Source of the DNA: an uncultured Planctomycetia bacterium
GTDB taxonomy: Bacteria > Omnitrophota > Gorgyraeia > 1-14-0-20-64-10
Assembly: GCA_964597545.1 (NCBI GenBank)
Contig: CAZQXN010000004.1
Span: 6,683 to 70,682 of the forward strand
Length of the DNA: 64,000 bases
Reading direction: 5' to 3'
The notes under the pieces were generated by a model. The model did not search any database. It was not told where the DNA came from and saw only the letters and a program-made list of their open reading frames with translations. Both the position numbers and the translations under genes were made by a program. Below are positions 11,267 to 63,690 of the stretch, one piece after another (positions within the stretch are counted from its first letter, which is position 1; every line of letters begins with the position of its first letter).

Positions 11267-11538
11267 GATTGCACTTACCCTACGGTGTTTGATCTCCCCT
11301 GTCAACCTACACCCACCAGCCGAAGGGCAAGCTGGAGACGGGGCCCTTGTGACGGGGTGGCCCGAACGCGCACCGTTGGAAGGCCGTGCGGGCATGGTGT
11401 CCCTGGCGCTGCATCTTATCGGGGACGAGCACGGCCGAACACCGGAGCGAGGATTGCCTCGCTGGGGCAATCCGAGCGGTGCGCGGCGGACCAACACGGC
11501 GCAGGGGTGTCTCCAGCTTGCACGGGAGGTCTGCTATA

Positions 11539-13008: not shown

Positions 13009-16000
13009 TTATGCTCCTGTTGCCAGTTCCTCCAGCCCCACCATGAAGGCGGGCAATTCTGTGGCAAGGAGGTGTTGGTCAACCCCCATGCGTTCAAAAA
13101 TATACTGAATCATTGCCGCTGCGTTTGCTGCTGCCGCCCGGACGACTGTTCCTGTAATGCCGGCATACTCCGCCAAGCTGAACAACAGGTCCGTCTCCTC
13201 CAGGCCGCCCAGCGCCCGAAAAGAGCGGGCATCTAAGGCAACGAGCTGGGTAACGACTCCTGCCGGATCAGTTCCATCATGAATCAGAGCTCTATCCTCA
13301 AGCCCGGCAAAAGCTCTTACAACCGGATCTTCCGCCAGATCTCCTCCAATCACAAAGAAGGAGTTGGGGTGGGTAGCAGAGCGATGGAGTCGCTCCAGTC
13401 GCCCCTCAATAGAGACCGGCCAAGAAACTGCTTCCTCCAGGCCTGTAGCGGGTCCACCAATGAGGTATGGCTCAAGATTCATCTGCAAGCCTGCATCTTT
13501 CTTGGGAAGGTTTTCCCATACCTTAACAATCTGATCTGCGGGAATCTCTAAAACGCGTTCTAGAATCGATAAATGGACCTCTGGAGTATCTTCCCTGGCG
13601 CCAAAGAGCCTGAGGGTGTCCACCTTGTTGCGATTGGAAAGGTATCGGAAGGGGATGACGTTTTCATCTGGCCGAACATTCACAGCGGCAACCCGAGCAT
13701 AGGGAAAATCCACGTATTGGTGTACGGTTTCTGGGGGATGTCCTGTAAAATCAAATTCAGCCAGGACGGCGTCAGATCGGTTACCTCTTGTTGCATAGCT
13801 CATCGCATGCTCTGGGATCTGCGTGATATTAGCATCTGAGCCAAACGGGGTTTCGTAATAGGGCAGCCCTCCATGCTCCAGGAGCTTCCATTTAAAGCTC
13901 TCCCAATTAGCTCCGTGCAACCAAACGTGACCGATCCACTGCGATCTTTCATCTTCGGTTGTCTCTCTAAAATATGCTTGTCCGCTTTCATTGGTGTCCA
14001 TCGTGACTTCGAAGCGCACAATGGCTTCATTTGCGCCCTGATAATTTAGCTCGCCGCCACTTCCATCCGCGGATTGATACGAGAGGTTTTGCTTTCCCCC
14101 TCCCTGCGCTGCAAGACGAGTTGCGCTTTTGATGGATCGAAATAGCTCCAGTCGGGTTGCCATGATCTTTGACCGCTCTCGCCATTCAATGCCCTCATCA
14201 GTTGTTACAAATTTGATGTCGCCAGCATCAACCTTTGCCAAAATAGCCTTTGTGAGCATGATGGCTGCCCAGGGACTAACGATGTCATCTTCGTTAATTG
14301 AGATTTTCGCCTTATCTCTAAATACCAGACGATGCGATTGGTCAGACCATCGGATATCGGGAAATACCGGCACATAATGAGGCTCGTGCATTGAAATGAT
14401 CAGCGGAGACTGCGCCTGAATAGACCCGGCTAACCCCTCGACTTTCTGTATGGTTCGTAGGTCTAATTCCTCCAAGCCTGTAGCGGGCTTCAGATCCAGT
14501 AACTCCACTATCTGCCTGGCTGAGCGCAGATAAGCATCAAACGCACTTTTGGATGAATAAGTAGAAGGGGTCGTTCTCATCTCTGCAGCGGACAGCTCTC
14601 CGGTTACAAACTGAGCAAGCCTATGGGCATCTGCCAGATGCAACCGTCTTGCGCCGCTGTCTGTCCCGAGATGCAGATCGTAATACCTCACAGCATCGGA
14701 GAACCGTGTCGGGTTGGGCATCGCTCCAAACCAAACTGCCAGCAAAAGCTGAACAACATGTTTGGGCTCCTTGAAACTAAAGCTATCTGAGGCTGGAAGC
14801 TCTTTCTCTAATACTTGGCGGGCAGCGGAGAAGGAGAGCTTGCCAGCCAAGAACTCTGGCAAGATATGCTGCGCTTCCTGGCGAAGTTTTAACAAGGTGT
14901 GCCAGGGGACGACAGTTTGATCGATAACATCCGGTGTATGAATGGGGTGTGCTTTGCCCGGGACCCACCCTTTGTAATCCAGATCAACGTCGAAAAGCAG
15001 ATCGGTCACTCCCTGCGGAATCTGTTCGGTATGCGCACGGTTGGCCGCCTCTTCGAACATCGCAGGAGGGATCCCCTGGAGATCCAGAACAATCAAGGTA
15101 TCTGTTCCGACACCAAGCAAAATCTGCTCCCCTCGTTTCGACATCACCTCCAGAATTGCCAGGATGGGGTGGGCTTCTGGGATCTTTGAGTCGAAGAAGT
15201 CGGTTTCCAAATAGACAATGTCGGGCCATCCCCAGCGGTAATGGATGTGCTCCAACAACAACTGGGCAGGTGCGCCAGAAAGCATATACGGAATTGCTTG
15301 AATCCACTTTTCTAACCCTTCGGGGGTTTGAATCGGGTGAAACCGTTCAAGCTCATGGATAGTGATCCGTAGATTTGATTTCTTATCTTCAATGATTTTG
15401 GGGTCAGCCGAGGGGGCATTGGGATCAGGCAAGTCAAGATAAGGTTTTTGCTGCCTTCGGTAATGGCTCGACTTATCAAACAAAAGCTGGCGAACACCTT
15501 GAGGAACTCGGGAAAAATGGGCCCGTTTTTTCATCTCCTCGAAGACCACCCGATCATCCGGGCCGGCCTCGATTCCTTCGCTATCCACAACCACCAACTC
15601 ACCGGAGCCGACTGCTACCACAACCTCTTTGGGCCGCTGGGCTACCTGATCTAGCGCATGGGAGATGCTCAATGCTGAGGCAGCCCTGTCTCTCCAGAAG
15701 CTCTCTGCGACAAGATAGGCAACCACTTCGTTTGGCCACTGATCATCAATGTATTGCAAAAGTTGTTGGGCCGCCCGCTCAGAAAGAATTTCCCACTTGG
15801 CCGATAAAGCCGAAAAAGCTTCTGGTTCTCGCAGAAGATTCATTATTGGCACATTGTTCAAAAACGGCGGCTGCTCCTCTATCCCGGCAGCAGCTGTGGG
15901 ACTCAATGCTTCCTTGAGTTGGAGGGTGACAGGGGACCCCTCTTCCATCCCTGCATTTAAGGGTCGCAACGCCCAGGCAGCGGGGGTGGGCAAAGCTAGG

Positions 16001-16053
16001 CCAGCGCTTAGCAGAAACATTAGGATTCTGTAGATGACCGGCTGCCTTTTCAT
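13009..16053 (-). CDS. Large secreted protein of unknown function (1015 aa from proposed start), with an internal duplication and recurrent A-x-G-L-E-E motifs
   Basis: - Signal peptide MKRQPVIYRILMFLLSAGLALPTPAAWA.
- Two internal roughly 100-aa repeats (...WP..V.YL....F...........LVV.D..GI......RAH....PQGV..LLFD).
- No recognisable enzymatic motif.
- ORF opens at 16113. Confidence 0.6.
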   Translation of the reverse strand: MKRQPVIYRILMFLLSAGLALPTPAAWALRPLNAGMEEGSPVTLQLKEALSPTAAAGIEEQPPFLNNVPIMNLLREPEAFSALSAKWEILSERAAQQLLQYIDDQWPNEVVAYLVAESFWRDRAASALSISHALDQVAQRPKEVVVAVGSGELVVVDSEGIEAGPDDRVVFEEMKKRAHFSRVPQGVRQLLFDKSSHYRRQQKPYLDLPDPNAPSADPKIIEDKKSNLRITIHELERFHPIQTPEGLEKWIQAIPYMLSGAPAQLLLEHIHYRWGWPDIVYLETDFFDSKIPEAHPILAILEVMSKRGEQILLGVGTDTLIVLDLQGIPPAMFEEAANRAHTEQIPQGVTDLLFDVDLDYKGWVPGKAHPIHTPDVIDQTVVPWHTLLKLRQEAQHILPEFLAGKLSFSAARQVLEKELPASDSFSFKEPKHVVQLLLAVWFGAMPNPTRFSDAVRYYDLHLGTDSGARRLHLADAHRLAQFVTGELSAAEMRTTPSTYSSKSAFDAYLRSARQIVELLDLKPATGLEELDLRTIQKVEGLAGSIQAQSPLIISMHEPHYVPVFPDIRWSDQSHRLVFRDKAKISINEDDIVSPWAAIMLTKAILAKVDAGDIKFVTTDEGIEWRERSKIMATRLELFRSIKSATRLAAQGGGKQNLSYQSADGSGGELNYQGANEAIVRFEVTMDTNESGQAYFRETTEDERSQWIGHVWLHGANWESFKWKLLEHGGLPYYETPFGSDANITQIPEHAMSYATRGNRSDAVLAEFDFTGHPPETVHQYVDFPYARVAAVNVRPDENVIPFRYLSNRNKVDTLRLFGAREDTPEVHLSILERVLEIPADQIVKVWENLPKKDAGLQMNLEPYLIGGPATGLEEAVSWPVSIEGRLERLHRSATHPNSFFVIGGDLAEDPVVRAFAGLEDRALIHDGTDPAGVVTQLVALDARSFRALGGLEETDLLFSLAEYAGITGTVVRAAAANAAAMIQYIFERMGVDQHLLATELPAFMVGLEELATGA

Positions 16054-50395: not shown

Positions 50396-51184
50396 TTACT
50401 CCTTCTTGTTGATGTAGTCGTCGAAGGTGATCTTGCCTTCCGTGGTCTGACGAAGCATCCGGACCCGGTCGGCGTAGTAGGGATGGGTTCGAAAGTAAGA
50501 GAAGCGCCGGACCGGCTGGTCAAAGGAATATTCCCTCAGGCGCTCAATGAAGGTGATGGCCGCCTTGACATCGAAGCCCGCGGCTTTGAGATATTTGGCG
50601 CTCAAGCGGTCCGCCTCAAGCTCATCCCGCTGAGAGTAGGCGGTGAGGATCGAGGCAAAGGCCAAATCCATCCCCTGCCGGGCTCGGGCATCGGCCTTGC
50701 CTACACCGACGGCCAGGATCTGAAACAACTGCATCCCGACAGCCCCTTGGATCCTTTTGACTGCGTGCTTGGCCACGACGTGACCCACCTCGTGGGCGAT
50801 CACCGCGGCCAGCTCATCGTCGGTTTCGACCAGATCAAAAAGCCCGGAGGTAACATAGATGGGACCGCCGGGCAGGGCAAAGGCATTGGGAAGCTTCTCC
50901 TTGACGATGGTAAAGCGGAAGCCCAAATCCTTGCGGTCGGCCACAGCAGCGATCCGGCTGCTCACCCGGTCCAGCCGTTCCAGAAGCTCCGGGTTGTAGA
51001 CAATGTCAAATTCCTCTTCCACCTTGCGGGCAACCGACTCCCCCAAGCGGACCTCCCGTGCTGTGGAGATAAAGAGGGTCTCCTGCCGTTCTGTTGCGAC
51101 GTTATAGCTTGTGCTGGCCCCGCAGCCGGCTAGGGCCACTGCGATCATGAACCACAGCGTAAGCGTGTAAGCCCGCTTTATCAT
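50396..51184 (-). CDS. M48-family zinc metallopeptidase lipoprotein
   Basis: HEVGHVVAKH (HExxH) motif. Lipoprotein signal MIKRAYTLTLWFMIAVALAGC at the proposed start. The ORF-track extension to 51352 overlaps the divergent gene. Confidence 0.7.
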   Translation of the reverse strand: MIKRAYTLTLWFMIAVALAGCGASTSYNVATERQETLFISTAREVRLGESVARKVEEEFDIVYNPELLERLDRVSSRIAAVADRKDLGFRFTIVKEKLPNAFALPGGPIYVTSGLFDLVETDDELAAVIAHEVGHVVAKHAVKRIQGAVGMQLFQILAVGVGKADARARQGMDLAFASILTAYSQRDELEADRLSAKYLKAAGFDVKAAITFIERLREYSFDQPVRRFSYFRTHPYYADRVRMLRQTTEGKITFDDYINKKE

Positions 51185-51346: not shown

Positions 51347-54300
51347 ATGCAAACACAGAAGTTAGCCTATCAACTCACAGCACTCATCCTATCGGCAGCT
51401 CTGACGCTGCCCCCTTCTGCGTACGCGCTGCGCCCGCAAGAGAAACAGGAAGCTTCCGGCCTAGAGGAGCTTACCAAGGCCCTGCGCTTAGGCAATCCAG
51501 ACGCTGCCCTCGACACCCTTGTTCAAAGTGTCGCTGAGCGCCTCACCCTACCTGTCCCAGCTACCGGCCAGGAGGAAGGACCGGCAGATAGGATAAGGAC
51601 CCTGCTGGAGAGATCCCCCAATACCGAAACCATCTTTCACATCATCGGTCGGGATCTTCTGAGCACCTACCCCGACCTGAGAGGGTTTCATGATCTCCAT
51701 TCCTCTTTTGCTGTCGAGGGAATATCTAATTCATCTTCGGACTTGATCAGGAGGCATGCTGGGCCAGGCCACCTAGAAGTTTGGTATCACTACCCACAGA
51801 AAGCTGTCTGGATCTCGTGGGAAGAGATGCAATATTCTGCAACGAATTCCAGACGCGGATTTCAGAGGAAAGTTTACCTCTCTACACCCGCCAGGGAGAG
51901 GTTAGGCGTAGAGGGATTCCTTCGGCACCTCCTTGGTCCAGGGCAACTCAATGTTCCCAGTGAACTTTGGGATGGCGATGAAGCAATGTTCCAGGTCCTT
52001 GAAGACCTGGCGACCCTCTCCTCCGCCGGCCAGGAGGAAGCGGAACAAATCCATCAATTCCCAAAAGACGTTATCTCTGAGGAAGAATTACACCTACTTC
52101 CAGCCCAGATATTTCTTTGGGGCATGTTTCGTTTCAATCAAGTGGTTGAGGACCGTTTTGTCGTAAGGCTGAAGAATCGAAGAAACAAAATAGAGATAAT
52201 CCCAGGAGATCCAGAAGATCTTCCAGAAGACGCAGCCATGATGCGCTTGGAGGTACAGGCTCAAGATACCGTGACCGTTACGGTAGAGGGAGCGGCATCT
52301 CCAGAGATTAGAGAGATGGCGGCGGATATCGTCTCGGATTGGCTGAGCAAAGTTTTCCAAGTCAACCAGGAGCTTAAAGCCAAGCAGGCCGAGCACGAGG
52401 GTTCTTTTAAAGATAAAGCCAACGCCATCAAGAGACGAGCTTGGGACGAGTTTTCTGAAAGCTTGACGCCGCTTAAAGCAGCCCTTTCCGCTGGCCAAGA
52501 GGAGGCGGCGCTGGATGAGATTGAGGCAGCCATCGAAACAAAAAGGAGCCTCGACTTCACGCCTACAACCATTCTAAAGCATGGCGATGTCCTGGGCCGT
52601 TTCCATGGAGCCAGGGGCGCTTCGGCCGATGTTTATGTGGAGGCAGATCACGTCCTAGGCAAAGTACTCAACTCCCCCTTCTTCCTGAGAATGGTCCTGG
52701 CACAGCATCTTGGCAAGACCATTGCCGGTGCCACTCCCCTTTCAGTGGATCGACATAGACCCCCCCCGGACAATGTCCGCTTTGCCCTGAATCTTCCCTA
52801 TAGGGATTATCTTGAGGCGATGGAGCCAAGCTTAGAAATGCTGGAGCGCTTAATTGACGATCCAGGGGAGATGGTAGAGGTAGTGGTAGTGGAACCGGCC
52901 CCTCATTCTGGAGGGGCTTGGGTCATTTATAAGGGAGGCCCAGGAGAGGCTTGGGTGCCCGGTTTCATCCCTACCCGCTTTGTGTTTGCCAAGAGTGTGC
53001 CGCATAGTGCAGCCCCTGGGAGATGGTGGCTGCACTCGAAGATCGGACAGACCATTCGCGTTAGGCCGGACAGTGTTAATCGGAGGGGCCATTTTCCGCA
53101 GGCAGTCTTTGCCGCGGACCAGTCCTTTAATGCGGTTCGACGAGAGATTCGCCTGGCCGAACGAGAACTTCAGCAGCGAGACAAAGAGCATATCCCAGTC
53201 CGAGTGATTCTCGTTCACGAAGCTCTGCAGGGAGTCGAGGTGATGTATCGGAGTCAAAACGGCGGGTGGATAAGCGGTTTTATCCCCCCCTCCCGCATCT
53301 CCTTTCATTCTAAAGGACGGCCTGTCGGAAGGTTGCCCCATCTGCTTGACCGCTTGGGTTGGTTCCTCTCCCGGGTTGGCCAGGATATTCCAGCGGATCT
53401 TATCGCGATTGACAGCAGCAGAGGGCTTCCCAGAGCCACCTTCTCTGTCCGCTTGTCTTTGGAGGAAGTGCTCCAGGAGATGCAGCCAGCCCTTGAGCGG
53501 TTAGGTCAGGCAGCGGCCAATCCGAACGATCGGGTTGATGTGGAGTTGGCCTTGTTGGGCAGTAGAGAGGATGCAAACAGTATGAGGTATAGCCATTGGA
53601 ACCAGACAAGCTGGGTTCCGGGCTTCATTCCTGCGAGCCTATTCCTGGATGATCCTCACCAGAAAGTGCATACCTCCATTATCCGCGCTTGGTTATGGCG
53701 GCACCGGCATGAAAAGATTCCGGTGGCCGTAAAAGATGTTACACACAATCGACACCTTCCCAGGGCAGCCTTCAGCCTTGGACTTACAATTGACCAACTT
53801 AAAGCGGAGATTGAGCCTGCAGCCGAGCAGTTGGAAGGCTTAGGCCCGGGAGAGCTTCAGGTTCCATGTGAGGTGATACCCGCTACTGTAGAGGCCGGAG
53901 CAGAGGTGTTGTATCGCGGGCCCAGAGGAACGTGGATCCCAGGTTTTATTCATAAGAGCTACATCCGCTTTTTAGATAGAACAGTAGCTCCTCATGCCCT
54001 TTGGAGTCAATGGCTGAAAAGGCAAGTTGGCCGCAAGATCAATGTTACGTTTAATCACATCAAGCGCAATGATCCCATCCCGTCCGCGCTTTTTTCGTTG
54101 ACTCTGCCTGAGGATGTCCGGCCCTCTTTCCGTCCGGGCAAGACAGCTTCCGCTGGCCAGGAGGAGTGGTCAGCGGATGTTTGGAATCGACTTCACGCCG
54201 TCGGGCTGCATGGGACAACTGGCCCCTTGCTCAAGGAAATCATCCAGTATTACTCCAGGCAGGGGGCCGACGCCGATTTCGAGGGTGTCCGGGAAAAATG

Positions 54301-57001
54301 GGAAGCAATTGCCCGGATCATCCCTGATGCTCCGAGTCTTTCCGGTGTGGCAGAGGGTGTTGTGAGCGGTTTTATAGAGCGGGAGCTTCCCCTTTGGAAA
54401 CTTTCCGGGGTCCTCCTTCGCCGAGGCAGGTATGGTGAGGGTCACGGTGTTCTGCTGATTGGAGACGCCCGGCATGCTACAGTGAAAGCGCCCCAGACCA
54501 TTCAAATCAACCGAGGTTTAACCGGCCTCGCTCTTTTCCTTGTGGGAGATCCGAATATGAGCTGGGTTAAGCCACCACCCAAAGCTCCGGATTGGCGGTT
54601 CCTTGCTCAAAACAATCTTGTTGGCTTCGTAAGCGATGGCCAGCTCATTGTTGGCTCCAATCCCACGACAGAGAACCCCTCTGGACTGCGCGCCAAGATA
54701 GGTTGGCGGGATGACGACGTACCCTTTGGGTCAACAAGAATCCAATCCAGAGGAGAGTTTATTCCTGTTGAGCGCATCATCAAACTGGAAATGAAGGATA
54801 CCAAACCCTCAAAGATTGAGGCGGTTTGGGTCGGCTCTTCGCACGTAGCAATTCCGGAAGCGTTGGTACAGATCCTTGAGAGAATCGACGCCATTCATTT
54901 GGAGATCCAAGAGGGGGATCGTTTGGGGCAGTACCGGGAGTATGCTGGGCGCCTGCATCGAGAGTATTTTGCCGGCCTGGAAGAGGTTCAAGACGAGGTG
55001 GTGCGGCAGGCATGGGACGAATTGCGTCGGATTGTTACCCTAGAAGAATTTCAGGTTGACGATGAGGAGGCTCTTGTTCGGTTTGGGAAATCCACAGGGG
55101 CTAAAGTGGTTAAGAAAACAATTACAGGACGCCCCATCGTTACTATTGGACCGGAAATGTTCCGGAAATTGACCGCTTTTCGCCAGACAGGCCAACTTCC
55201 GCCTGGTACCCCCGCCAAGCATTATGAAGAACTACGAAACAATGATGAAGTGAATGAACCTGGCGTTTATGTGAGTCCTACCGGACTGAAAATGGCGCAT
55301 CAGGAGTTGGCTGCCGCAGGCATTGATTTTCGTTATACGAAAGGAATCTTCTTTCATGAGGCGCTGGAGGAAGGGTTTGATGGTTCCGGAATCACTGACC
55401 CCATCTTGGCTCTATGTGAACAGCATACGGACCCAAGGGTGATCGAAGAGGAGCTTCTGGTCAATGCGTTAATCGGGGAAGAAAGCGTAGAGGCCTCACG
55501 GGCAGGTTATCAATTCGCCAAACAGAGAGTTGATCAAAACCTCAGCAATAGCCAGCGCTTCTTCGCGTTTGTTAAAGACCGTTACGAGAGCGGAGGCCGT
55601 TCTACCACATTTGATGAGATTGAAGCCTCGCTTGGCCCAACAAGCCGGTATTATCGAACACTCCAATGGGTTGTTGATACCCCGTACGACCAACTCCTCG
55701 CATTGGCCCAAAGACGCTGGGAAGGATCCGATTACTCCTCTGCCGTTCCTCTCGCAGCCGGCCTGGAGGAGGAGACAACCAGAGTCCTGGCTCCTACGCT
55801 GGAAGTTCCAATTGCTGCCCTGGAAGAGGGTAATCTAGAGCAAGCACTGCAAGGATCTGCCTATCTCCTGGAGCCTAAGCCGACAACAGATCAACTCGAA
55901 ACATCTTTTGTGCAATTCCCCGGTGAACTCTGGGCTGTTGGATTCAGGGATCGAGACAATATTCCGCATCTCGCTGTTGGAGCAGGAAACAGGGATCACG
56001 CTATTGGCATAACTGATTTCTTAACCAAGGCATACAGCGCGGCGCCCGTCAGCGTTGACGTCGTTCACAAGCATCCGGAGCCCCCCTTTCCTTCGAAGGG
56101 AGATTTTGATCTATTGAGAACCTGGAAGCTACGCCAGGGAGGGCGCGTAGGCCGACAGCGCAATTGGGTTGAGATTCGCCGAGATGGAGTGTGGCGACTC
56201 CTTGGGTACGGGAGAGATTATAAAGAGACGGCAGATTTCCAAAGAGAGATTCAGGTTCAGATTTGGAAAAGAGGCGAGAGGGCGCAGAACGAGTTCTATC
56301 TTCCAGGTACTGGAGGTTTACGCGTTGCGCTTGTCGCGGACCAAGAGGTTTTTGGCATCCCGGGCCTTGATTATTTCTATCAGTTGATCGACCAGCCTGA
56401 GACAACAGGGGTCAGGTTCGAAGATGCCGTTGGCCACTGGGTTCTCTGGAGGGCAGACAACACCTGGGAATCTATCTTCGAATCACAAGGCTATACTCGT
56501 TCTGCCACTAGCTTTTCGACAGCGAGCAGGGCAGGGCCGGTGGAAGCGGCAGGCGCGCTGCTTACGCGGTTGGCCCAAGCCGCAGAAGGCCAACCCGGCG
56601 TTTTGGTGCTCACCCCTGAGGCCATCCAGGATCCAGCCGGCCTAGAGGAGCTTATCAAGCGCCTCCCCCCAGAGCTCTTACGACGGACCATCTGGTTCAA
56701 CACAGGAGTTGCCCTGGCCGAATACCTGCACTCCCTTGAACCCACCCTCCAGATCATAAAGGACTACAACACCCAAGCCCTGGTCCTAAAACTCCTCAGC
56801 AGGGAAGAGGCAGAGAAGATCACCACCACCTCTAAAGATCTTGCCCTCTACCTCCAAGAAGTCCTCCCCATGACCGTCACCTACCTTAAGGTCCTCACCG
56901 TCAAGCTGATCCTGGCGGCCCTAGGGGTTCCCATCGAACAGCTCAACCAGATCGACCCCACCAAGCTCGAAGCCCTCTTCGCACCGCTGGTAGCCGCCTA
57001 A
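51347..57001 (+). CDS. Giant secreted protein (1884 aa), unknown function, with four W[VI]PGFIP-type internal repeats and recurrent A-x-G-(L/Q)-E-E motifs
   Basis: - Signal peptide MQTQKLAYQLTALILSAALTLPPSAYA.
- Repeats (GEAWVPGFIPTRF..., GGWISGFIPPSRI..., TSWVPGFIPASLF..., GTWIPGFIHKSYI...), each followed by a basic segment and L..A.FS..L.
- C-terminal 135-aa module is duplicated at 63200-63624. Confidence 0.7.
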   Translation: MQTQKLAYQLTALILSAALTLPPSAYALRPQEKQEASGLEELTKALRLGNPDAALDTLVQSVAERLTLPVPATGQEEGPADRIRTLLERSPNTETIFHIIGRDLLSTYPDLRGFHDLHSSFAVEGISNSSSDLIRRHAGPGHLEVWYHYPQKAVWISWEEMQYSATNSRRGFQRKVYLSTPARERLGVEGFLRHLLGPGQLNVPSELWDGDEAMFQVLEDLATLSSAGQEEAEQIHQFPKDVISEEELHLLPAQIFLWGMFRFNQVVEDRFVVRLKNRRNKIEIIPGDPEDLPEDAAMMRLEVQAQDTVTVTVEGAASPEIREMAADIVSDWLSKVFQVNQELKAKQAEHEGSFKDKANAIKRRAWDEFSESLTPLKAALSAGQEEAALDEIEAAIETKRSLDFTPTTILKHGDVLGRFHGARGASADVYVEADHVLGKVLNSPFFLRMVLAQHLGKTIAGATPLSVDRHRPPPDNVRFALNLPYRDYLEAMEPSLEMLERLIDDPGEMVEVVVVEPAPHSGGAWVIYKGGPGEAWVPGFIPTRFVFAKSVPHSAAPGRWWLHSKIGQTIRVRPDSVNRRGHFPQAVFAADQSFNAVRREIRLAERELQQRDKEHIPVRVILVHEALQGVEVMYRSQNGGWISGFIPPSRISFHSKGRPVGRLPHLLDRLGWFLSRVGQDIPADLIAIDSSRGLPRATFSVRLSLEEVLQEMQPALERLGQAAANPNDRVDVELALLGSREDANSMRYSHWNQTSWVPGFIPASLFLDDPHQKVHTSIIRAWLWRHRHEKIPVAVKDVTHNRHLPRAAFSLGLTIDQLKAEIEPAAEQLEGLGPGELQVPCEVIPATVEAGAEVLYRGPRGTWIPGFIHKSYIRFLDRTVAPHALWSQWLKRQVGRKINVTFNHIKRNDPIPSALFSLTLPEDVRPSFRPGKTASAGQEEWSADVWNRLHAVGLHGTTGPLLKEIIQYYSRQGADADFEGVREKWEAIARIIPDAPSLSGVAEGVVSGFIERELPLWKLSGVLLRRGRYGEGHGVLLIGDARHATVKAPQTIQINRGLTGLALFLVGDPNMSWVKPPPKAPDWRFLAQNNLVGFVSDGQLIVGSNPTTENPSGLRAKIGWRDDDVPFGSTRIQSRGEFIPVERIIKLEMKDTKPSKIEAVWVGSSHVAIPEALVQILERIDAIHLEIQEGDRLGQYREYAGRLHREYFAGLEEVQDEVVRQAWDELRRIVTLEEFQVDDEEALVRFGKSTGAKVVKKTITGRPIVTIGPEMFRKLTAFRQTGQLPPGTPAKHYEELRNNDEVNEPGVYVSPTGLKMAHQELAAAGIDFRYTKGIFFHEALEEGFDGSGITDPILALCEQHTDPRVIEEELLVNALIGEESVEASRAGYQFAKQRVDQNLSNSQRFFAFVKDRYESGGRSTTFDEIEASLGPTSRYYRTLQWVVDTPYDQLLALAQRRWEGSDYSSAVPLAAGLEEETTRVLAPTLEVPIAALEEGNLEQALQGSAYLLEPKPTTDQLETSFVQFPGELWAVGFRDRDNIPHLAVGAGNRDHAIGITDFLTKAYSAAPVSVDVVHKHPEPPFPSKGDFDLLRTWKLRQGGRVGRQRNWVEIRRDGVWRLLGYGRDYKETADFQREIQVQIWKRGERAQNEFYLPGTGGLRVALVADQEVFGIPGLDYFYQLIDQPETTGVRFEDAVGHWVLWRADNTWESIFESQGYTRSATSFSTASRAGPVEAAGALLTRLAQAAEGQPGVLVLTPEAIQDPAGLEELIKRLPPELLRRTIWFNTGVALAEYLHSLEPTLQIIKDYNTQALVLKLLSREEAEKITTTSKDLALYLQEVLPMTVTYLKVLTVKLILAALGVPIEQLNQIDPTKLEALFAPLVAA

Positions 57002-57024
57002 ACCCAAACCTAAAACCTGTACCC

Positions 57025-57053
57025 GGTACCAAGGGGTCAGACCCTTTCGTACC
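57025..57053. repeat. GGTACC / GGGTCAGACCC-family hairpin after the giant gene (contains the 19-mer GGGTCAGACCCTTTCGTAC also found at 21434)
   Basis: GGTACCAAGGGGTCaGACCCTTTCGTACC is an imperfect hairpin. Confidence 0.5.
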
Positions 57054-57081
57054 AGTATTTGATAAATATGCAACATATTTG

Positions 57082-57110
57082 TTGACATCGTTAACAGGGC
57101 GGTGTACCTT
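57082..57110 (+). promoter_or_regulatory. Putative promoter (TTGACA - 17 nt - TACCTT) preceded by an ATATGCAACAT motif
   Basis: TTGACA at 57082-57087. The motif TTGATAAATATGCAACAT resembles the RAYT promoter region. Confidence 0.3.
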
Positions 57111-57119
57111 AGTGCCCCC

Positions 57120-57680
57120 ATGGACACCAAGGTTTCCTGCGAAAGACTCCTCGCCAAGCAAGTTGAGCACCACATTCTCCTCATCCGGGGCCAGAAGGTG
57201 ATGTTGGATTCGGACCTGGCCGCGCTCTATGGCGTCAGCGTTGGAAGATTAAACGAGGCAGTCAAACGCCGGGTCAATCGGTTTCCCTCCGATTTCATGT
57301 TTCAGTTGACGCCTCAAGAGGCGCAATCTCTAAGGTCGCAAATTGCGACCTTAAACTTGAAATCGCAAATTGCGATATCAAGTTTAAATTGGGGTGGGCG
57401 GCGCCACCCCCCGTTTGCATTTACCGAGCAAGGTGTTGCTATGCTCTCCACCGTCCTTAACAGTGAGCGGGCGATTCGCATCAACGTTGCGATCATGCGG
57501 GCCTTCGTCAAGCTCCGGGAGATGCTTTCTGCACACAAGGCGCTGGCTCGGAAGCTGACTGAGCTGGAACGCAAACTCGAAGGGCATGATGCGCAAATTC
57601 ACTCACTCTTTGAAGCCATCCGGCAGCTTATGGCACCGCCCAAACGCGTTCGCCGGAAAATCGGGTTTCAGGCGGGGTAG
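57120..57680 (+). CDS. ORF6N-domain (KilA-N-like, phage-associated DNA-binding) protein, paralog 1
   Basis: HILLIRGQKVMLDSDLAALYGV...FMFQLT...PFAFTEQGVAMLSTVLNSERAIRINVAIMRAFVKLR is the ORF6N domain. Confidence 0.7.
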   Translation: MDTKVSCERLLAKQVEHHILLIRGQKVMLDSDLAALYGVSVGRLNEAVKRRVNRFPSDFMFQLTPQEAQSLRSQIATLNLKSQIAISSLNWGGRRHPPFAFTEQGVAMLSTVLNSERAIRINVAIMRAFVKLREMLSAHKALARKLTELERKLEGHDAQIHSLFEAIRQLMAPPKRVRRKIGFQAG

Positions 57681-57688
57681 CGGGTAGC

Positions 57689-59230
57689 GTGCTGGCCAAG
57701 GTTCATTCTGCAGCGCTCGTTGGCTTGACCGCCGTTCCGGTTGCGGTAGAGGCGGATGTCTCCAACGGTTTGCCCGGGGTGACTGTTGTGGGCCTGCCGG
57801 ATACCGCGGTTCGGGAGTCCAAGGTTCGCATCCGCTCAGCCATCAAAAACAGCCAGTACGACTGGCCCATGAGCCGGATGACGGTCAATCTCGCTCCTGC
57901 TGATGCTCGGAAAGAAGGTTCAGCCTTTGATTTTCCGATGGCGCTGGGGCTCTTGGCTGCCTCCGGCCAGATGGATCCGACTGCCTTGGCCGACACCGTC
58001 ATCTTGGGGGAGCTGGCGCTGGATGGCTCCTTAAGGCCGGTTCCAGGGATTCTGGCGGTTGCCTTAAGCCTTCAGGGCAAGGGCAAGCGCCTTCTTCTTC
58101 CGGCAGCCAATGCGGCTGAGGCAGCCATGGTTGAAGGGGTTGAAGCCTACCCCTTAAGCTGCCTTCCTCAAGCGATTCAGTTTCTGGAAGGGCGAGAGGA
58201 GGTCAGCCCGGCGCAGGTCGATTTGACAAAGCTTCTCCAGAATGATCCTGCGTCAGATGGCCTGGATTTTTCAGAGGTGAAGGGGCAGGTGACCGCCAAG
58301 CGAGCCATTGAGATTGCCGTTGTTGGAAGCCACAATCTGCTTTTGCTCGGTCCACCCGGTGCCGGCAAGACCATGCTGGCTGAGCGGATTCCAACAATCC
58401 TGCCGGAGATCTCAGCACCCGAGGCGTTGGAGACTACCTTAATCTACAGCGTAACCGGGCACCTGCAATTGAGTCGGCCCCTTCTGAATAAGCGGCCCTT
58501 TCGTTTTCCGCATCACACGGTATCCGACGTGGGGCTTGTCGGAGGCGGTTCCCCTCCCAAGCCAGGGGAGATCTCCCTGGCGCATCACGGGGTACTCTTC
58601 TTAGATGAACTGCCGGAGTTCCCCCGCTCAGTCTTAGAAAGCTTGCGCCAACCTTTGGAGGAGGGGAGGATCACGGTCTGTCGAGCCAGAGGAACCACCA
58701 CCTTCCCGGCTAAGTTCATGTTGGTTGCCGCCATGAATCCATGCCCGTGCGGTTTTGCCGGGGATGTCACCAAGAATTGTCTTTGCACCCCCAGCCAGTT
58801 CCTCAAGTACCGCTCCAGAGTCTCCGGCCCCTTGATGGACCGGATTGACCTCCACGTTGAGGTCCCGGCCCTTTCCTACAGCGAGCTGACTGAGGAAACT
58901 CCAGCAGAGTCCTCCACGGCTATCCGGATGCGAGTAACCCAGGCTCGTGCTCGTCAACAAAGGCGCTTTCAGGCTACCCCCAGCTGTTTTGCCAACGCCC
59001 AAATGCGCCACCGGCACCTCAAGCGCTTCTGTTCCCTCTCTGAGGAGAGCCGCCAGCTCCTCAAGGATGCCATCTCGGGCTTGGGTCTCTCTGCCCGCGC
59101 CTACCACAAGATCCTTAAAGTTGCCCGAACCATTGCTGACCTGGAAGCTGCCCCTGATATCGTTCCTCACCACCTGGCAGAGGCGATCCAATACCGCCTT
59201 CTGGACCGCTCCTATGCCGACTCCCTCTAA
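57689..59230 (+). CDS. comM: Mg-chelatase-like AAA+ ATPase YifB/ComM
   Basis: Lon-protease-like N-domain, Walker [21 protein letters not shown] Walker B, C-terminal ChlI-type domain. GTG start. Confidence 0.85.
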   Translation: MLAKVHSAALVGLTAVPVAVEADVSNGLPGVTVVGLPDTAVRESKVRIRSAIKNSQYDWPMSRMTVNLAPADARKEGSAFDFPMALGLLAASGQMDPTALADTVILGELALDGSLRPVPGILAVALSLQGKGKRLLLPAANAAEAAMVEGVEAYPLSCLPQAIQFLEGREEVSPAQVDLTKLLQNDPASDGLDFSEVKGQVTAKRAIEIAVVGSHNLLLLGPPGAGKTMLAERIPTILPEISAPEALETTLIYSVTGHLQLSRPLLNKRPFRFPHHTVSDVGLVGGGSPPKPGEISLAHHGVLFLDELPEFPRSVLESLRQPLEEGRITVCRARGTTTFPAKFMLVAAMNPCPCGFAGDVTKNCLCTPSQFLKYRSRVSGPLMDRIDLHVEVPALSYSELTEETPAESSTAIRMRVTQARARQQRRFQATPSCFANAQMRHRHLKRFCSLSEESRQLLKDAISGLGLSARAYHKILKVARTIADLEAAPDIVPHHLAEAIQYRLLDRSYADSL

Positions 59231-59741
59231 CCAGAAGATCATCGTTGATCAGGTAGAGCGCCGAATCCTTCTTATTCGAAGCCAGAAGGTAATGTTGGAC
59301 TCGGACCTGGCGAAACTCTACGGGATTGCAACGAAGAAATTGAACCAAACAGTCAGACGTCACATCAAACGCTTTCCACGGGATTTTATGTTGCAGCTGA
59401 CCTGGGAAGGGGTAGAGAAGCTTTCAAGGTCACAATTTGTGACCTTGAAACATGGGCAGAATATCAAATATCGGCCCTACGTTTTCACAGAACAGGGAGT
59501 AGCGATGCTCTCGTGTGTTCTGAACAGCGAGCGAGCCATTCAGGTTAACATCGCCATCATGCGGGTTTTTGTGAAGCTCCGGAAGATGTTGACCAACCAC
59601 AAAGGGTTGGCTCAGAAACTGGAAACGCTGGAAAAGCGATACGACGCGCAATTCAAAATAGTTTTTGACGCGATTCGCAAGCTCATGATACCCACCCATC
59701 GGCTTCGGCGTCGCATTGGGTTCCATTCACAGAAGCGTTAG
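59214..59741 (+). CDS. ORF6N-domain protein, paralog 2
   Basis: RILLIRSQKVMLDSDLAKLYGI...FMLQLT...PYVFTEQGVAMLSCVLNSERAIQVNIAIMRVFVKLR. Start at the internal Met overlapping the comM end. The ORF-track start at 58947 lies inside comM. Confidence 0.65.
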   Translation: MPTPSNQKIIVDQVERRILLIRSQKVMLDSDLAKLYGIATKKLNQTVRRHIKRFPRDFMLQLTWEGVEKLSRSQFVTLKHGQNIKYRPYVFTEQGVAMLSCVLNSERAIQVNIAIMRVFVKLRKMLTNHKGLAQKLETLEKRYDAQFKIVFDAIRKLMIPTHRLRRRIGFHSQKR

Positions 59742-60049: not shown

Positions 60050-60385
60050 CCCACTGCAGCTCAATACGCAGGCGGCAGTCACTCGCACAACTCGCACTCG
60101 TGGGACGCTCACCAGGAGCGGCGGAATCGGGGCGGATTTGACGTAACTATTGATCAGGTATTAGGTTAACGAGATTTGTGCTTGCGGGCCCGGAACGCTG
60201 GGGGGCCGAAAAATTTGATGAAATTACCCCCTTGCAGCTTAGGAGATAGTGTATACTTTCTTACTGTAAGGAACAATATAGGTCTGAAAAAGGCAAACTA
60301 TCCGAAAGGGTAGGGCGTAACGCCATAGAGCCGTCAGGGTTATGTAATGTAACCCCCGGCAGTCGGTTGCCAGATCAAACGGTAA

Positions 60386-60424
60386 AAGCCCTAAGCTTTT
60401 GGATAAGTTTGGGGCTTTTTTTAT
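60386..60424 (+). terminator. Imperfect hairpin followed by T7 (intrinsic terminator)
   Basis: AAGCCCTAAGCTTttggatAAGTTTGGGGCTTTTTTT. Confidence 0.5.
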
Positions 60425-60502
60425 TTGTACACTAGCTTGATTCTTGGCGGAAGAAGATATGGTGGAATCTCAAAGGGATTGAAGGAAAAGGGGGTTGCGG
60501 GA

Positions 60503-61645
60503 ATGAAGAGCAAGATGAAATTGATTATAGGTATGATAATGGGATTTTCATTCTCGGTAGTGATGCTATGTATGGGGGGTAGTTCCATATATGCTGCCGA
60601 GCTTGAGGTGGATAAGGAGGAATTTAACGAAAAATGGCAGGAAACCTACAAGGAACTTCAGGAGATTGATCCTACAGCAGCCGAAGAATTTCGCGCTTTA
60701 ACTGTGGAGGAATTTGAAGTAGGAAATGTCGGATATGTTCCTGAAGAGAGAGGGGGGACTGAGGAAATAGGTCCTGGCCCTGCTCCCGGTCCTAGGCCTG
60801 GTCCGCATGTCGGTCCCCGTCCTGATCCCGTGGAAGCTTTGAAAGCAAAAGGAATAAGTGATGAGGATATTGGCAAGATTCGCAAGGCTGAGGAAGCATT
60901 AAGCGTGGAAAGCGAGAAGGTCGAATGGGATAAGCTGACTCCCGAGGAAGCAAGGAAGGTGGAGCAGTCCTTCGGAGAACGTTTCAAGGAAATGAGCGGG
61001 TATGATCCAAAAGATATTTTTGCCCCGCCTCCGGGAGACCACCACCCAGAAGGCCCATATCACGGGCCAGGACATGAGGGGCCTTACGCTGGTCCTCATC
61101 ATGAAGGGCCTTATGTCGGTCCTCGTCCGGAACCTGGCTTCATAGAGGGTCCATATCCTGGGCCAGGACATGAAGGACCTTACGCCGGTCCTCATCCAGA
61201 ACGTGGTTTTGAAGGTCCCGTGATGGGGGGGCCGATGCCTGAAGGTCCCGTGATGGGGGGGCCGATGCCTGAAGGTCCCATGATGGAGGGCCCGGCATTT
61301 GAGGGTCCTATGATGGGGGGGCCGATGCCTGAAGGTCCCATGATGGATAGGCCGATGTTTGAAGGTCCTATGATGGAGGGCCCGGCGTTTGAGGGTCCCA
61401 TGATGGAAGGGCCGGCATTTGAGGGTCCCATGATGGAGGGCCCGGCGTTTGAGGGCCCGGCATTTGAGGGCCCAGCGTTTGAGGGTCCGGCGTTTGAGGG
61501 CCCGGCATTTGAGGGTCCGGCGTTTGAGGGCCCGGCATTTGAGGGCCCAGCGTTTGAGGGTCCGGCATTTGAGGGCCCAGGAGAGGATATAGAGCATATC
61601 CATGATGAGAATATGCCACCACCTCCAGAAGAGAATAATCCGTAA
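60503..61645 (+). CDS. Secreted His/Pro/Gly-rich tandem-repeat protein (EGPYxGPxH, EGPMMEGP and EGPAFEGP repeats)
   Basis: Signal peptide MKSKMKLIIGMIMGFSFSVVMLCMGGSSIYA at the ATG at 60503. 15-nt and 30-nt periodic coding repeats at about 61020-61600. AT-rich context. Confidence 0.7.
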   Translation: MKSKMKLIIGMIMGFSFSVVMLCMGGSSIYAAELEVDKEEFNEKWQETYKELQEIDPTAAEEFRALTVEEFEVGNVGYVPEERGGTEEIGPGPAPGPRPGPHVGPRPDPVEALKAKGISDEDIGKIRKAEEALSVESEKVEWDKLTPEEARKVEQSFGERFKEMSGYDPKDIFAPPPGDHHPEGPYHGPGHEGPYAGPHHEGPYVGPRPEPGFIEGPYPGPGHEGPYAGPHPERGFEGPVMGGPMPEGPVMGGPMPEGPMMEGPAFEGPMMGGPMPEGPMMDRPMFEGPMMEGPAFEGPMMEGPAFEGPMMEGPAFEGPAFEGPAFEGPAFEGPAFEGPAFEGPAFEGPAFEGPAFEGPGEDIEHIHDENMPPPPEENNP

Positions 61646-61708
61646 GAAGGCTAGTGGCCTATACTGGAGAGTTGTGGGGTTTGAGGTAAGGTAGGTAACT
61701 GCAGAAAA

Positions 61709-61746
61709 GTAAAAGGCCTACTTCTTCAAAGAAGTAGGCCTTTTAC
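61709..61746. terminator. Bidirectional rho-independent terminator (16-bp perfect palindrome) between convergent genes
   Basis: GTAAAAGGCCTACTTCTTcaaaGAAGTAGGCCTTTTAC. Confidence 0.7.
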
Positions 61747-61758
61747 TATAGAGAAATA

Positions 61759-62862
61759 CTAGAAACTTACGTAGAGTCCTGCCAGGTGCGAAACCTGGTC
61801 GTAGTCGTAAACAGCATAGTTTGAGTCTGACTTCTTGTGCGTGAAGGTGTATGACAAGGTCCAGTCTTTCTTCAGCGTATAGTAGAAGTATAACTTCTGG
61901 GTATATACATCGTCGTATTCCATTTCAGCATATGATGCAGGTGAGCCCACCCTGCGCTTGCAGTAGTTCTTTCGTTCATAGGCCGAACTGGCTTTGGCAT
62001 ACAGTTTCTTTGTGAGGCTACGGCCAAGCTCTCCTGTCACCTTATAGGAATACAGGTCGTAGTACTCCCTGTAGTTGTCGTTGGAAGTTTCTGTGTAGAA
62101 CTTTTGCTTGATCTTAGCGTTGTTTTTGCCCAGGAGAGGAAAACCCAGGTTGTATTCAAAAGCATGTCTGTTTTTTTCCACCACCATTCCGGAAATAAAG
62201 TCAGTGCTGGTGTTTGTGCGTGGTCGCTTTTTATCGTACTCCTTAAAGGAGTACTCGTATTTACCATCGTGAGACCAGCGTTTCCAGAATCGGTGCTTGA
62301 ACTTCAGGAAGAGCTTATCCTCCGTATAAGAGGAGGTTCCGGCGTCAGGGTAATGGACGTACTGGCGTTCCCACCCTGGCTGTAACTCAAAGTAAGGTTT
62401 TCCGGTAGGGAAATATTTAAGGATGACTTTAAAGGCAGCGTCCAAGATGGTCGTATCCTGGTTGTCGAAGTAGATATCGGCATAATGCCACGGACCGATC
62501 TCTGCCCCAAAGTAATCGTTGAAGGTAGGAACCCAAGCAAAGGAAAAATACTGTTCGAAATATAGGTCTCCCCGTCGGTCAGAATTGGTATTGGCATTTT
62601 TGTCGTATCCAATGTGAAGACCGACTGTTCCTTTGGTGGCGCGCAGTTGTTCGCGTTGTTTCTCTTCCATCTTGCGCAAGGCGCGCTGCTTGAGCATCTC
62701 GATCAATTCCTCGGCAGAGCTTATAGCCGCGCCTCTGTCTTCCGCAAGCCCTTCCGCCAGGCGGTCCTCTCGGGCCTCTTCCGATTGGGCCCATCCCGGC
62801 GGCGGATTGATGAGTAGGGCTCCGACAATCAAGCTGAGCAGAAAGAGATCCTTTCTTGCCAT
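61759..62862 (-). CDS. Outer-membrane beta-barrel protein (porin-like), unknown specificity
   Basis: Signal peptide MARKDLFLLSLIVGALLINPPPGWA. Tyr/Lys/Asp-rich with alternating hydrophobic pattern. C-terminal ...LAGLYVSF aromatic terminus. AT-rich codon usage. Confidence 0.6.
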   Translation of the reverse strand: MARKDLFLLSLIVGALLINPPPGWAQSEEAREDRLAEGLAEDRGAAISSAEELIEMLKQRALRKMEEKQREQLRATKGTVGLHIGYDKNANTNSDRRGDLYFEQYFSFAWVPTFNDYFGAEIGPWHYADIYFDNQDTTILDAAFKVILKYFPTGKPYFELQPGWERQYVHYPDAGTSSYTEDKLFLKFKHRFWKRWSHDGKYEYSFKEYDKKRPRTNTSTDFISGMVVEKNRHAFEYNLGFPLLGKNNAKIKQKFYTETSNDNYREYYDLYSYKVTGELGRSLTKKLYAKASSAYERKNYCKRRVGSPASYAEMEYDDVYTQKLYFYYTLKKDWTLSYTFTHKKSDSNYAVYDYDQVSHLAGLYVSF

Positions 62863-62973
62863 TTTTTCTTCCCTCCCCCCTTAGTTAGAATTAAAAACAA
62901 CATACGCTTTTTGCAAACAGTTGTCTACATTTTTGTCAAGTTATTTTGGTGCAAATAACTGTCCCCCTAACAA

Positions 62974-63624
62974 GTGGCCGCTATCGAGATTGCGGTGGCC
63001 GGCTGCCACAACCTCCTCTTGATTGGCCCGCCCGGTGCCGGCAAGACCATGTTGGCTGAGCGGATTCCAACAATCCTGCCAGAGATCTCAGCACCCGAGG
63101 CATTGGACACCACCTTGATCTACAGCGTGACTGGGCATCTTCAGCTGAGTCGACTCCTGTTGAATAGACGGCCCTTTCGCTTCCCGCACCACCTTGCTCA
63201 AGAGGCAAAGGGCCGCTCCGGCATGCTGGTACTAACCCCGAAAGCCATCCAGGACCCAGCCGGCCTGGAGGAACTCGTTAAGCGCCTGCCTCCAGAGCTC
63301 TTGCAGCGGATCATCTGGTTCAACACAGGTGTTGCCCTGGCCAAACGCCTGCATGCCCTGGAACCCACCCTCCAGATCATAGAGGACTACAACACCCAAG
63401 CCCTGGTCCTAAAACTCCTAAGCCAGGAAGCAGCAGAAAAGATCTCCACCACCTCTGAATCCCTCACCCTCTACCTCCAAGAAGTCCTCCCCATGACCGT
63501 CACCTATCTGAAAGCCCTCACCGTCAAGCTGATCCTTGTCGCCTTAGGGGTCCCCATGGAGCAGCTCAACCAGATCGATCCCACCCAGCTAGAAACCCTC
63601 TTCGCACCGATTACCGCTGCTTAA
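62974..63624 (+). pseudogene. Chimeric duplicated fragment: internal comM segment (Walker A region) fused in-frame to a copy of the giant protein C-terminal module
   Basis: - Residues [42 protein letters not shown]...RPFRFPHH are about 85% identical to comM residues about 205-290.
- The following residues, ...[26 protein letters not shown]...LFAPITAA, are about 80% identical to giant-protein residues about 1750-1884.
- The fragment is followed by the same GGTACC repeat. Confidence 0.55.
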
Positions 63625-63690
63625 CCCTAAAATCGGTACCAGGTACCAAACCCACAAATCGGTACCTGGTACCAAGAGCTGGTACCAAAA
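63625..63690. repeat. GGTACC-family repeat (AATCGGTACCAGGTACCAAACCCAC ... AATCGGTACCTGGTACCAAG ... GGTACC)
   Basis: The same terminal unit as the bioD-bioA element; arms in opposite a/t-centre orientation. Confidence 0.55.

Follow-up and report, generated by a model that had tools for sequence, protein, structure and literature searches.

A predicted exported mosaic protein with S1-like repeats and a recurrent pentapeptide motif between exchangeable modules

The DNA analysed here, a 64,000-nt stretch of contig CAZQXN010000004.1 from an uncultured bacterium (the window), carries at 51347..57001 (+) an unbroken reading frame of 1884 amino acids (aa), referred to below as the giant (P0001). The list of open reading frames (ORFs) and the translation confirm the frame of the original prediction, with an ATG start and a ribosome-binding-site-like AGAGGAA 5 nt upstream of it; the start lies within a 160-bp AT-rich intergenic region between divergent genes. 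The N-terminus, MQTQKLAYQLTALILSAALTLPPSAYA↓LRP, combines a lysine in the n-region, a 12-residue hydrophobic core and an AYA↓LRP site, the layout of a typical Sec signal peptide, via which the giant is predicted to be exported. The earlier description of the protein as secreted stands in so far as this layout is legible, as a prediction read from sequence features. Two elements recur along the chain and are the subject of this report: a pentapeptide of the form [AST]G[LQ]EE and an array of W[VI]PGFIP repeats.

The tetrapeptide G[LQ]EE occurs eight times in the giant, with its glycine at aa 38, 74, 228, 383, 937, 1210, 1472 and 1765 and a small residue at position -1 in every case. At least seven A-x-G-(L/Q)-E-E motifs had been claimed; the eighth, FAGLEEV at 1208, had been overlooked. 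As 20,000 composition shuffles of the giant gave a mean of 0.15 motifs and a maximum of 4, the observed number is beyond composition chance. A six-frame scan of the window for [ASTGP]G[LQ]EE returned 12 occurrences, all in frame within three related ORFs: the eight of the giant, three in a 1014-aa ORF and one in the ORF at 62974-63624. At the DNA level, the pattern GGCCWRGARGAR is found 11 times against 0.35 expected. The signal peptide, the leader behind it and the motifs lie as follows, where L007 is the syntenic locus of a relative and the syntenic allele its 876-aa protein, both described below:

51347..51427 (+), signal peptide, aa 1-27, predicted cut AYA↓LRP, from sequence features; the junction is kept in 10 family N-termini
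51428..51580 (+), aa 28-78, leader of the family, containing motifs 1 (ASGLEE) and 2 (ATGQEE); equals homology block 1 against the syntenic allele
51458..51469 (+), motif 1, GLEE codons, from the DNA pattern scan
51566..51577 (+), motif 2, GQEE codons; the 92%-identical DNA common with L007 stops 19 nt upstream
52028..52039 (+), motif 3, GQEE, from the DNA pattern scan
52493..52504 (+), motif 4, GQEE, directly 5' of the S1-like array
54155..54166 (+), motif 5, GQEE, start of homology block 2 against the syntenic allele
54974..54985 (+), motif 6, GLEE, end of homology block 2
55760..55771 (+), motif 7, GLEE, from the DNA pattern scan
56531..56545 (+), decayed motif-like AGPVE, aa 1729-1733, where the 876-aa allele carries SGQEE (alignment and eye)
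56639..56650 (+), motif 8, GLEE, from the DNA pattern scan

The original prediction had also placed the motif in a "1015-aa paralogous-terminus protein" (here 1014 aa) and in a duplicated C-module; both exist and both carry it, and the motif proved to be present throughout a family that includes remote relatives. Over 35 instances in 12 proteins, the core reads [A22/T7/S5/G1]-G-[L29/Q4/M/I]-E-E and the flanks are variable, with proline enriched upstream and an amphipathic pattern downstream. These data support a motif that is non-random, acts at the protein level and looks functional. A literature search on the motif turned up no relevant paper, and none of the sortase (LPXTG), LapG (TAAG), prepilin and double-glycine sites agrees with its consensus, which mostly has alanine at position -1.

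The family emerged from an exhaustive HMMER search with aa 1-1200 as the query, which found P0002 (1053 aa; through the repeats, E 3e-7) and P0003 (1864 aa; through its first 88 residues, E 5e-4). Both have a signal peptide ending in ...AYA↓L[RK] that is followed by [ST]GLEE, plus further xGLEE motifs. A profile search with the N-termini added six N-terminal fragments from metagenomes with the same leader layout, P.PA[WYFH]A↓LR[PQST], then [AST]GLEE[AL]L 6-14 residues on and usually a second AGLEE. This leader is common to the giant, the two full-length remote relatives, the six fragments, the 1014-aa protein and the syntenic alleles, and in an all-versus-all phmmer comparison it alone is common to all members; the S1-like repeat is common to the giant and P0002. 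The cargo differs from member to member: P0003 has a CofD/YvcK-like domain and a segment that by eye looks HAD-like (DxDxT), P0002 has a Peptidase_S9/alpha-beta-hydrolase segment, and the modules of the giant outside the repeats contain nothing recognisable. A word-indexed homologue search with the full giant returned only the giant itself, overlooking the 876-aa allele present in the same collection; the status of an orphan is therefore partly a search artefact. A homologue search with the repeat profile gave no match. Neither of two contig scans gave a real match: L003 proved spurious, consisting of 16 residues inside a DnaB gene, and L005 and L006 are the same 16-residue match. On the metagenome contig OBEQ010143243.1 (ENA; L004), two family genes stand in tandem, at 36-521 (+) and 617-6211 (+): the C-terminal end of one member (AAGLEE, LSGLEEK) and, 95 nt later, P0003. 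By these relationships, the giant belongs to a so far undescribed family of polymorphic proteins that is rare, changes fast and is predicted to be exported.

How the members of this family change can be read from the syntenic allele. Exact look-ups located orthologues of the window's housekeeping proteins, at least 90% identical, on a 75-kb JGI contig (L007), where the gene order is LPG-synthase, M48, the 876-aa protein, ORF6N, comM and spoVG, with flanks that are 84-92% identical. The 876-aa protein, for which Pfam gave no match, and the giant share three blocks only:

block 1, giant aa 1-78 against allele aa 1-76, 74% identity
block 2, giant aa 936-1213 against allele aa 455-727, 57% identity
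block 3, giant aa 1737-1884 against allele aa 729-876, 74% identity

Block 1 ends at motif 2, and the upstream synteny, at 91.7% identical DNA, continues through the leader to stop 19 nt before this motif. Block 2 starts at motif 5 and ends at motif 6, its DNA homology extending from CGCyGGCCAGGAGGAGTGGTC to just past CCGGCCwGGArGAGG. Block 3 begins one residue past SGQEE in the allele and past the decayed AGPVEAAG in the giant. Between the blocks, the allele has two different modules with VAGQEE between them, one of them methyltransferase-like by eye (VNVGSGV...NPPY; no Pfam match); the giant instead has modules A and B, the S1-like array, and modules D and E. The modules of the giant other than the array are:

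51581..52492 (+), unassigned modules A and B, aa 79-382, split by motif 3; not in the 876-aa allele
54152..54985 (+), unassigned module C, aa 936-1213; counterpart in the 876-aa allele at aa 455-727 (57% identity)
54986..56554 (+), unassigned modules D and E, aa 1214-1736, split by motif 7; not in the 876-aa allele
56555..56998 (+), conserved C-terminal module, aa 1737-1884, with motif 8; 74% identical in the allele, 82% in a downstream orphan copy

That three independent junctions should each fall within about 5 residues of a motif has, by our own arithmetic, a chance of about 1e-3 to 1e-4. As the breakpoints between the alleles coincide with the motifs, the pentapeptide delimits the modules of a polymorphic locus, and these modules are exchangeable, the alleles differing by whole-module replacement or loss. 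The S1-like array is likewise bracketed by motifs, both in the giant (383/937) and in P0002 (433/833). Such a location at module boundaries is what would be expected of a processing, sorting or docking site, and supports a role of this kind.

Could the signal instead reside primarily in the nucleic acid, with the peptide as a by-product? The core GGCCWGGAGGAG would then act as recombination microhomology or, in the manner of a Shine-Dalgarno sequence inside the gene, make ribosomes pause or re-initiate. In keeping with this, glycine is encoded by GGC in 8/8 motifs of the giant, against a background usage of 34% before C, two pairs of its motif instances have longer DNA identity, and the junction copies in its lineage have a common 14-nt core, C[CT]GGCC[AT]GGAGGAG; moreover, all three junction motifs of the 876-aa allele are CCGGCCAGGAGGAG, and the breakpoints lie within a few nucleotides of the GGCCWGGAGGAG core, which includes AGGAGG. 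Yet elsewhere in the family the same peptide is written with GGG, GGT or GGA for glycine, with TTG, TTA, ATG or ATA, and with mixed GAA and GAG, as in GGATTGGAAGAG; every instance is in one reading frame, inspection of the giant revealed no in-frame start codon after its motifs, and 12-14 nt is short for RecA-dependent exchange. Given the varied synonymous codons across the family and the lack of in-frame starts, the constraint lies on the peptide, with a reservation for the 14-nt core in this lineage. A purely nucleic-acid element, be it a Shine-Dalgarno-like pause, an internal start or a recombination signal, is thus retained as a minor and highly improbable rival.

The second recurrent element, the W[IV][PS]GFI[PH] signature, is found at aa 536, 641, 756 and 863. 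The four repeats claimed originally are all there, as clear units of about 110 aa that align at 27-31% identity, and they are preceded by a fifth, degenerate unit at aa 393-504:

52523..52858 (+), S1-like oligonucleotide/oligosaccharide-binding (OB) repeat 0, aa 393-504, degenerate
52850..53170 (+), S1-like OB repeat 1, aa 502-608, WVPGFIP
53168..53521 (+), S1-like OB repeat 2, aa 608-725, WISGFIP; the unit modelled
53510..53854 (+), S1-like OB repeat 3, aa 722-836, WVPGFIP
53840..54172 (+), S1-like OB repeat 4, aa 832-942, WIPGFIH; proline-rich linker and motif 5 at its end

By eye, the repeat consensus, V.V...GA.V.Y....W.PGFIP.S....PH...W...VG..I.V....R.R..P.A.FSL, resembles that of S1 domains. 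An AlphaFold2 (AF2) model computed on the five aligned repeats has a predicted local distance difference test score (pLDDT) of 80.8 and a predicted template-modelling score (pTM) of 0.71, with the order strands b1-b3, helix, strands b4-b5, helix; its antiparallel beta-barrel of five strands, with the helix placed after strand 3 and before strand 4, is that which defines the S1 fold. An hhalign comparison of the repeats with seven S1 sequences gave a probability of no more than 51%, in the expected register; a profile search of the PDB with the repeats found no S1 domain. Judging from the model, the W[VI]PGFIP repeats are five S1-like OB folds, each followed by a helix, without being members of the Pfam S1 family, and for this part of the giant the predicted structure supersedes the earlier statement that no known domain was recognised.

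The repeat model also bears on the conformation of the motif. In this confident model, the inter-repeat helix begins with the equivalent S-L-E-E of repeat 2, which supplies its N-cap and its first turn; from this we infer that the motif itself may cap and open an amphipathic helix in the same way, following a linker rich in proline, alanine and serine. It might then be merely a favoured way of starting a helix after a linker, inherited with the modules and recognized by nothing, with the breakpoints falling there because these are domain boundaries. To the S-L-E-E of the S1 model can be added the amphipathic pattern at positions +4 to +8 (A/L, x, x, L) and, as weak evidence, the location of 3/4 motifs at helix starts in a low-confidence AF2 model of aa 925-1884. 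Helix caps are, however, usually degenerate, yet G-L-E-E hardly varies among 35 instances whose flanks are unrelated and whose proteins come from different organisms, and the motif does not occur in the remaining ~17,000 codons of the window. We therefore consider this explanation quite unlikely.

Our preferred reading, to which we would assign a probability of about 60%, is that the giant is a Sec-exported mosaic protein of a polymorphic family, with the motif between exchangeable modules and with S1-like repeats. In-frame repeats at the junctions would ease the gain, loss and swapping of modules through recombination. At the protein level, the motif is probably a recognition site, and we favour extracytoplasmic processing, by which the modules would be separated from each other; this specific step, which draws on analogy, is a tentative one with the odds against it. 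The M48 metalloprotease lipoprotein encoded divergently from the giant would, by position, be a candidate partner or protease.

Left uncleaved, the motif could instead be a docking site, its many copies binding a partner, such as a receptor on the surface, a factor for export or sorting, or a further molecule of the same protein, so as to tether or sort the protein. The strictness of the five-residue core amid varying flanks, the two motif copies that every leader carries just after the signal peptide, and the motif-like sequences in the last ~12 residues of both P0003 and the 1014-aa protein would suit a signal for sorting or avidity no worse than they suit cleavage. No partner was identified for such docking, which by itself leaves the coincidence of allele breakpoints with the motif unexplained, and we rate it as unlikely, somewhat below cleavage. 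A more far-reaching proposal joins both levels: [AST]G[LQ]EE with its coding core C[CT]GGCCWGGAGGAG might be a dual-purpose junction of a new cassette system. In the DNA, its in-frame repeats would serve whole-module gain, loss and swapping and so give rise to polymorphic exported polyproteins; in the protein, it would be where an extracytoplasmic protease sets the modules free. Some of these modules would be of cytoplasmic type, for instance S1 arrays and CofD-, HAD- and methyltransferase-like domains, and could possibly be effectors acting on other cells. As a whole, this is a long shot, less probable than docking.

Several observations weigh against the preferred reading or parts of it. The S1 assignment comes from a predicted fold: Pfam gave nothing for the whole giant (E<=1) or for any of 7 repeats (E<=10), and the histidine of the canonical GxxH is proline in 3/4 clear repeats and histidine in repeat 4, with repeat 0 lacking the motif, where the register is that of the hhalign alignment. 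The structure prediction per segment that had been suggested gave the confident result described above for the repeats, but an unusable one for aa 925-1884 (pLDDT 32.7), so that the linker status of the motifs there is putative. Motif 8 seemingly lies inside the conserved C-terminal module, in a strand-motif-helix arrangement and not in a free linker. P0003 has a stretch of about 1600 aa with several domains and without the motif. The comparison of breakpoints involves one allele pair per locus, and selection for recombinants that can fold could by itself place breakpoints at linkers. As to processing, cleavage at the two motifs in the first 50 mature residues would free only tiny peptides, and no dedicated protease for the motif was identified, the link to the M48 gene being positional.

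Beyond the repeats, searches of Pfam, NCBIfam, PHROGs, PADLOC and PDB sequences with the whole giant and with six separate modules gave no match. At aa ~1500-1590 (window 55850-56120), a JAB/MPN-like signature can be seen by eye, PGELWAVGF...HKHPEPPFPSKGD / ...VVHKHPEPPFPSKGDFD, with a spacing of HxH-x6-S-x2-D where x7 would be canonical, a residue too few. The assignment finds no support in Pfam and the AF2 model is too poor to judge it, which leaves an unverified lead.

The following genes of the window are related to the giant or adjacent to it:

13009..16053 (-), second family member, 1014 aa (P0041); leader as in the giant, G[LMI]E[ED] present 7 times
50396..51184 (-), M48 metalloprotease lipoprotein (LAGC lipobox, HEVGH), divergent from the giant; position kept in the relative
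62974..63624 (+), chimeric ORF in which part of comM continues in frame into an orphan copy of the C-terminal module, motif included

The cargo of the 1014-aa protein is otherwise unrelated to that of the giant, except that its aa ~360-397 match the S1-like repeat weakly and without significance in BLAST (E 0.87). By eye, this protein contains an internally duplicated module of ~165 aa (aa ~90-225 and ~255-385), whose copies read QQLLQYIDDQWPNEVVAYL...VPQGVRQLLFD and AQLLLEHIHYRWGWPDIVYL...IPQGVTDLLFD; behind the duplication, a YKGWVPGKAHPIH segment recalls the signature of the S1-like repeats. At this second locus, the relative has a 630-aa family member, similar to the 1014-aa protein in the leader alone, between flanks that are 83-89% identical. 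The TldD/PmbA pair beside the locus was considered as a periplasmic processing protease and rejected, as it lacks a signal peptide. Between this pair and the 1014-aa gene lies an ORF (11386-12960, +) that is conserved in the relative and has a weak match, below the cutoff, to circularly permuted ATP-grasp type 2 (E 4e-5).

The chimeric ORF combines, in aa 1-73, a copy of ComM aa ~206-276 (83% nucleotide identity; compare 58304-58516) with, in aa 74-216, a copy of the C-module of the giant (84% nucleotide and 82% aa identity; compare 56573-57001). Its junction between comM and the C-module is the expected product of a tandem duplication or of a circularised 56573-58516 segment. The ratio of non-synonymous to synonymous substitution rates (dN/dS) is 0.04 in the part from comM and 0.22 in that from the C-module; purifying selection thus acted on both as they diverged. 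A second, partial ORF6N-like segment right after comM (59265-59618), 70-77% identical to the ORF6N of L007, is further evidence for local duplication of the segment comprising C-module, ORF6N and comM. The chimeric ORF stands at the right end of a ~3.6-kb insertion relative to L007, directly after spoVG (60053-63657), whose cargo further consists of a riboswitch, a proline-rich ORF and an ORF resembling outer-membrane proteins. The riboswitch is of the c-di-GMP-I type (RF01051; 60282-60374, +; 51.4 bits, gathering score 35) and lies directly 5' of the proline-rich repeat ORF (60425-61645, +). The latter encodes a predicted exported protein with ~25 pentapeptide repeats, EGPAF/EGPMM, coded by 15/30-nt tandem DNA repeats at 61178-61597; its sole Pfam match is a sub-threshold Extensin-like one. 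The third ORF (61759-62862, -) encodes a protein with a signal peptide, an outer-membrane beta-barrel-like appearance, a C-terminus of ...YVSF and no Pfam match.

At the other end of the window, three paralogues (657, 643 and 695 aa) follow each other in tandem at 1705-7690 (+). Their repeats, NTTGxxNxAxGxxAL, are 17 aa (51 nt) long and resemble those of adhesin heads; the first paralogue, the one included in the scan, had no Pfam match at 1e-5, and a related 638-aa gene is found elsewhere in the relative. The 64-kb window contains no tRNA or rRNA genes. The source organism is probably diderm, judging from the genes for lipoproteins and for proteins resembling outer-membrane proteins in a chromosomal context with biotin, purine and folate genes.

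How does the giant compare with known systems? Its repeats are like the S1 domain (PF00575; arrays in bS1 and Rrp5) in the predicted five-stranded barrel, the helix between strands 3 and 4 and the arrangement in tandem units, and in the hhalign alignment (51% probability) match it in the register G-A-x-V...G-F-[IL]-x-x-S...V-G-x-x-I-x-V...R...L-S-L. They differ in an extra strand and a C-terminal helix of ~20 aa, giving a period of ~110 aa, in their conserved residues (Y, W-x-P-G-F-I-P, P-H and W instead of the set that is canonical for RNA binding) and in having no sequence match in Pfam or the PDB. S1 proteins are cytoplasmic, whereas the giant has a predicted Sec signal peptide; an S1-like OB array behind such a signal is unusual and prompts one to ask which ligand such a surface would have beyond the cytoplasm.

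For the motif, a precedent of processing is provided by the P97/P102 adhesins of Mycoplasma hyopneumoniae, in which endoproteolytic sites of the form S/T-X-F↓X-D/E, with demonstrated cleavage, recur in surface proteins of large size, where linkers or disordered stretches that separate functional fragments contain them (PMC3322551). With a small or hydroxyl residue at -3, a hydrophobic one at -1 and an acidic one at +2, this pattern would fit [AST]-G-L-E-E if the cut were made after the leucine. The adhesins are, however, unrelated proteins of a wall-less Mollicute, and the motif of the giant is far stricter.

The closest parallels to the mosaic architecture are polymorphic toxins and effectors, with delimiters such as VENN in CdiA and PxxxxDPxGL in Rhs, and the mosaic effector arrays of MARTX. 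Like these, the giant combines conserved trafficking ends with variable cargo and an analogous short peptide/DNA junction where cassettes would swap, has an orphan cassette downstream (62974-63624), and differs by whole modules between the alleles of close relatives. However, its delimiter, [AST]G[LQ]EE, is neither VENN nor PxxxxDPxGL, it varies internally as well as totally, and it would be exported by a Sec signal peptide. Pfam and NCBIfam, which gave no match in the giant, revealed no toxin domain, no RTX or Rhs repeats and no cysteine protease domain. A variable immunity gene was not found, the downstream ORF6N and comM being conserved between the alleles, and there is no TpsB, type VI, type I or type VII secretion partner among the neighbours scanned, a part of the ORFs of the ~64-kb window. 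As the defining features of the CdiA, Rhs and MARTX families are lacking among the genes scanned, the giant is a member of none of them. The vlsE cassettes of Borrelia, where short direct repeats flank variable segments, offer a further parallel: in both cases, short in-frame direct DNA repeats bound the variable segments of a surface protein gene. Here, though, silent cassettes in an array were not found, and each module is a whole domain unrelated to the others, not a variant of one sequence. If our reading is true, the giant represents an undescribed polymorphic exported family with its own leader and its own module-junction motif, the combination of leader and [AST]GLEE being a simple handle for finding such proteins in metagenomes, and it would add a new example, beyond CdiA, Rhs and MARTX, of how bacteria assemble and reshuffle large multi-domain exported proteins.

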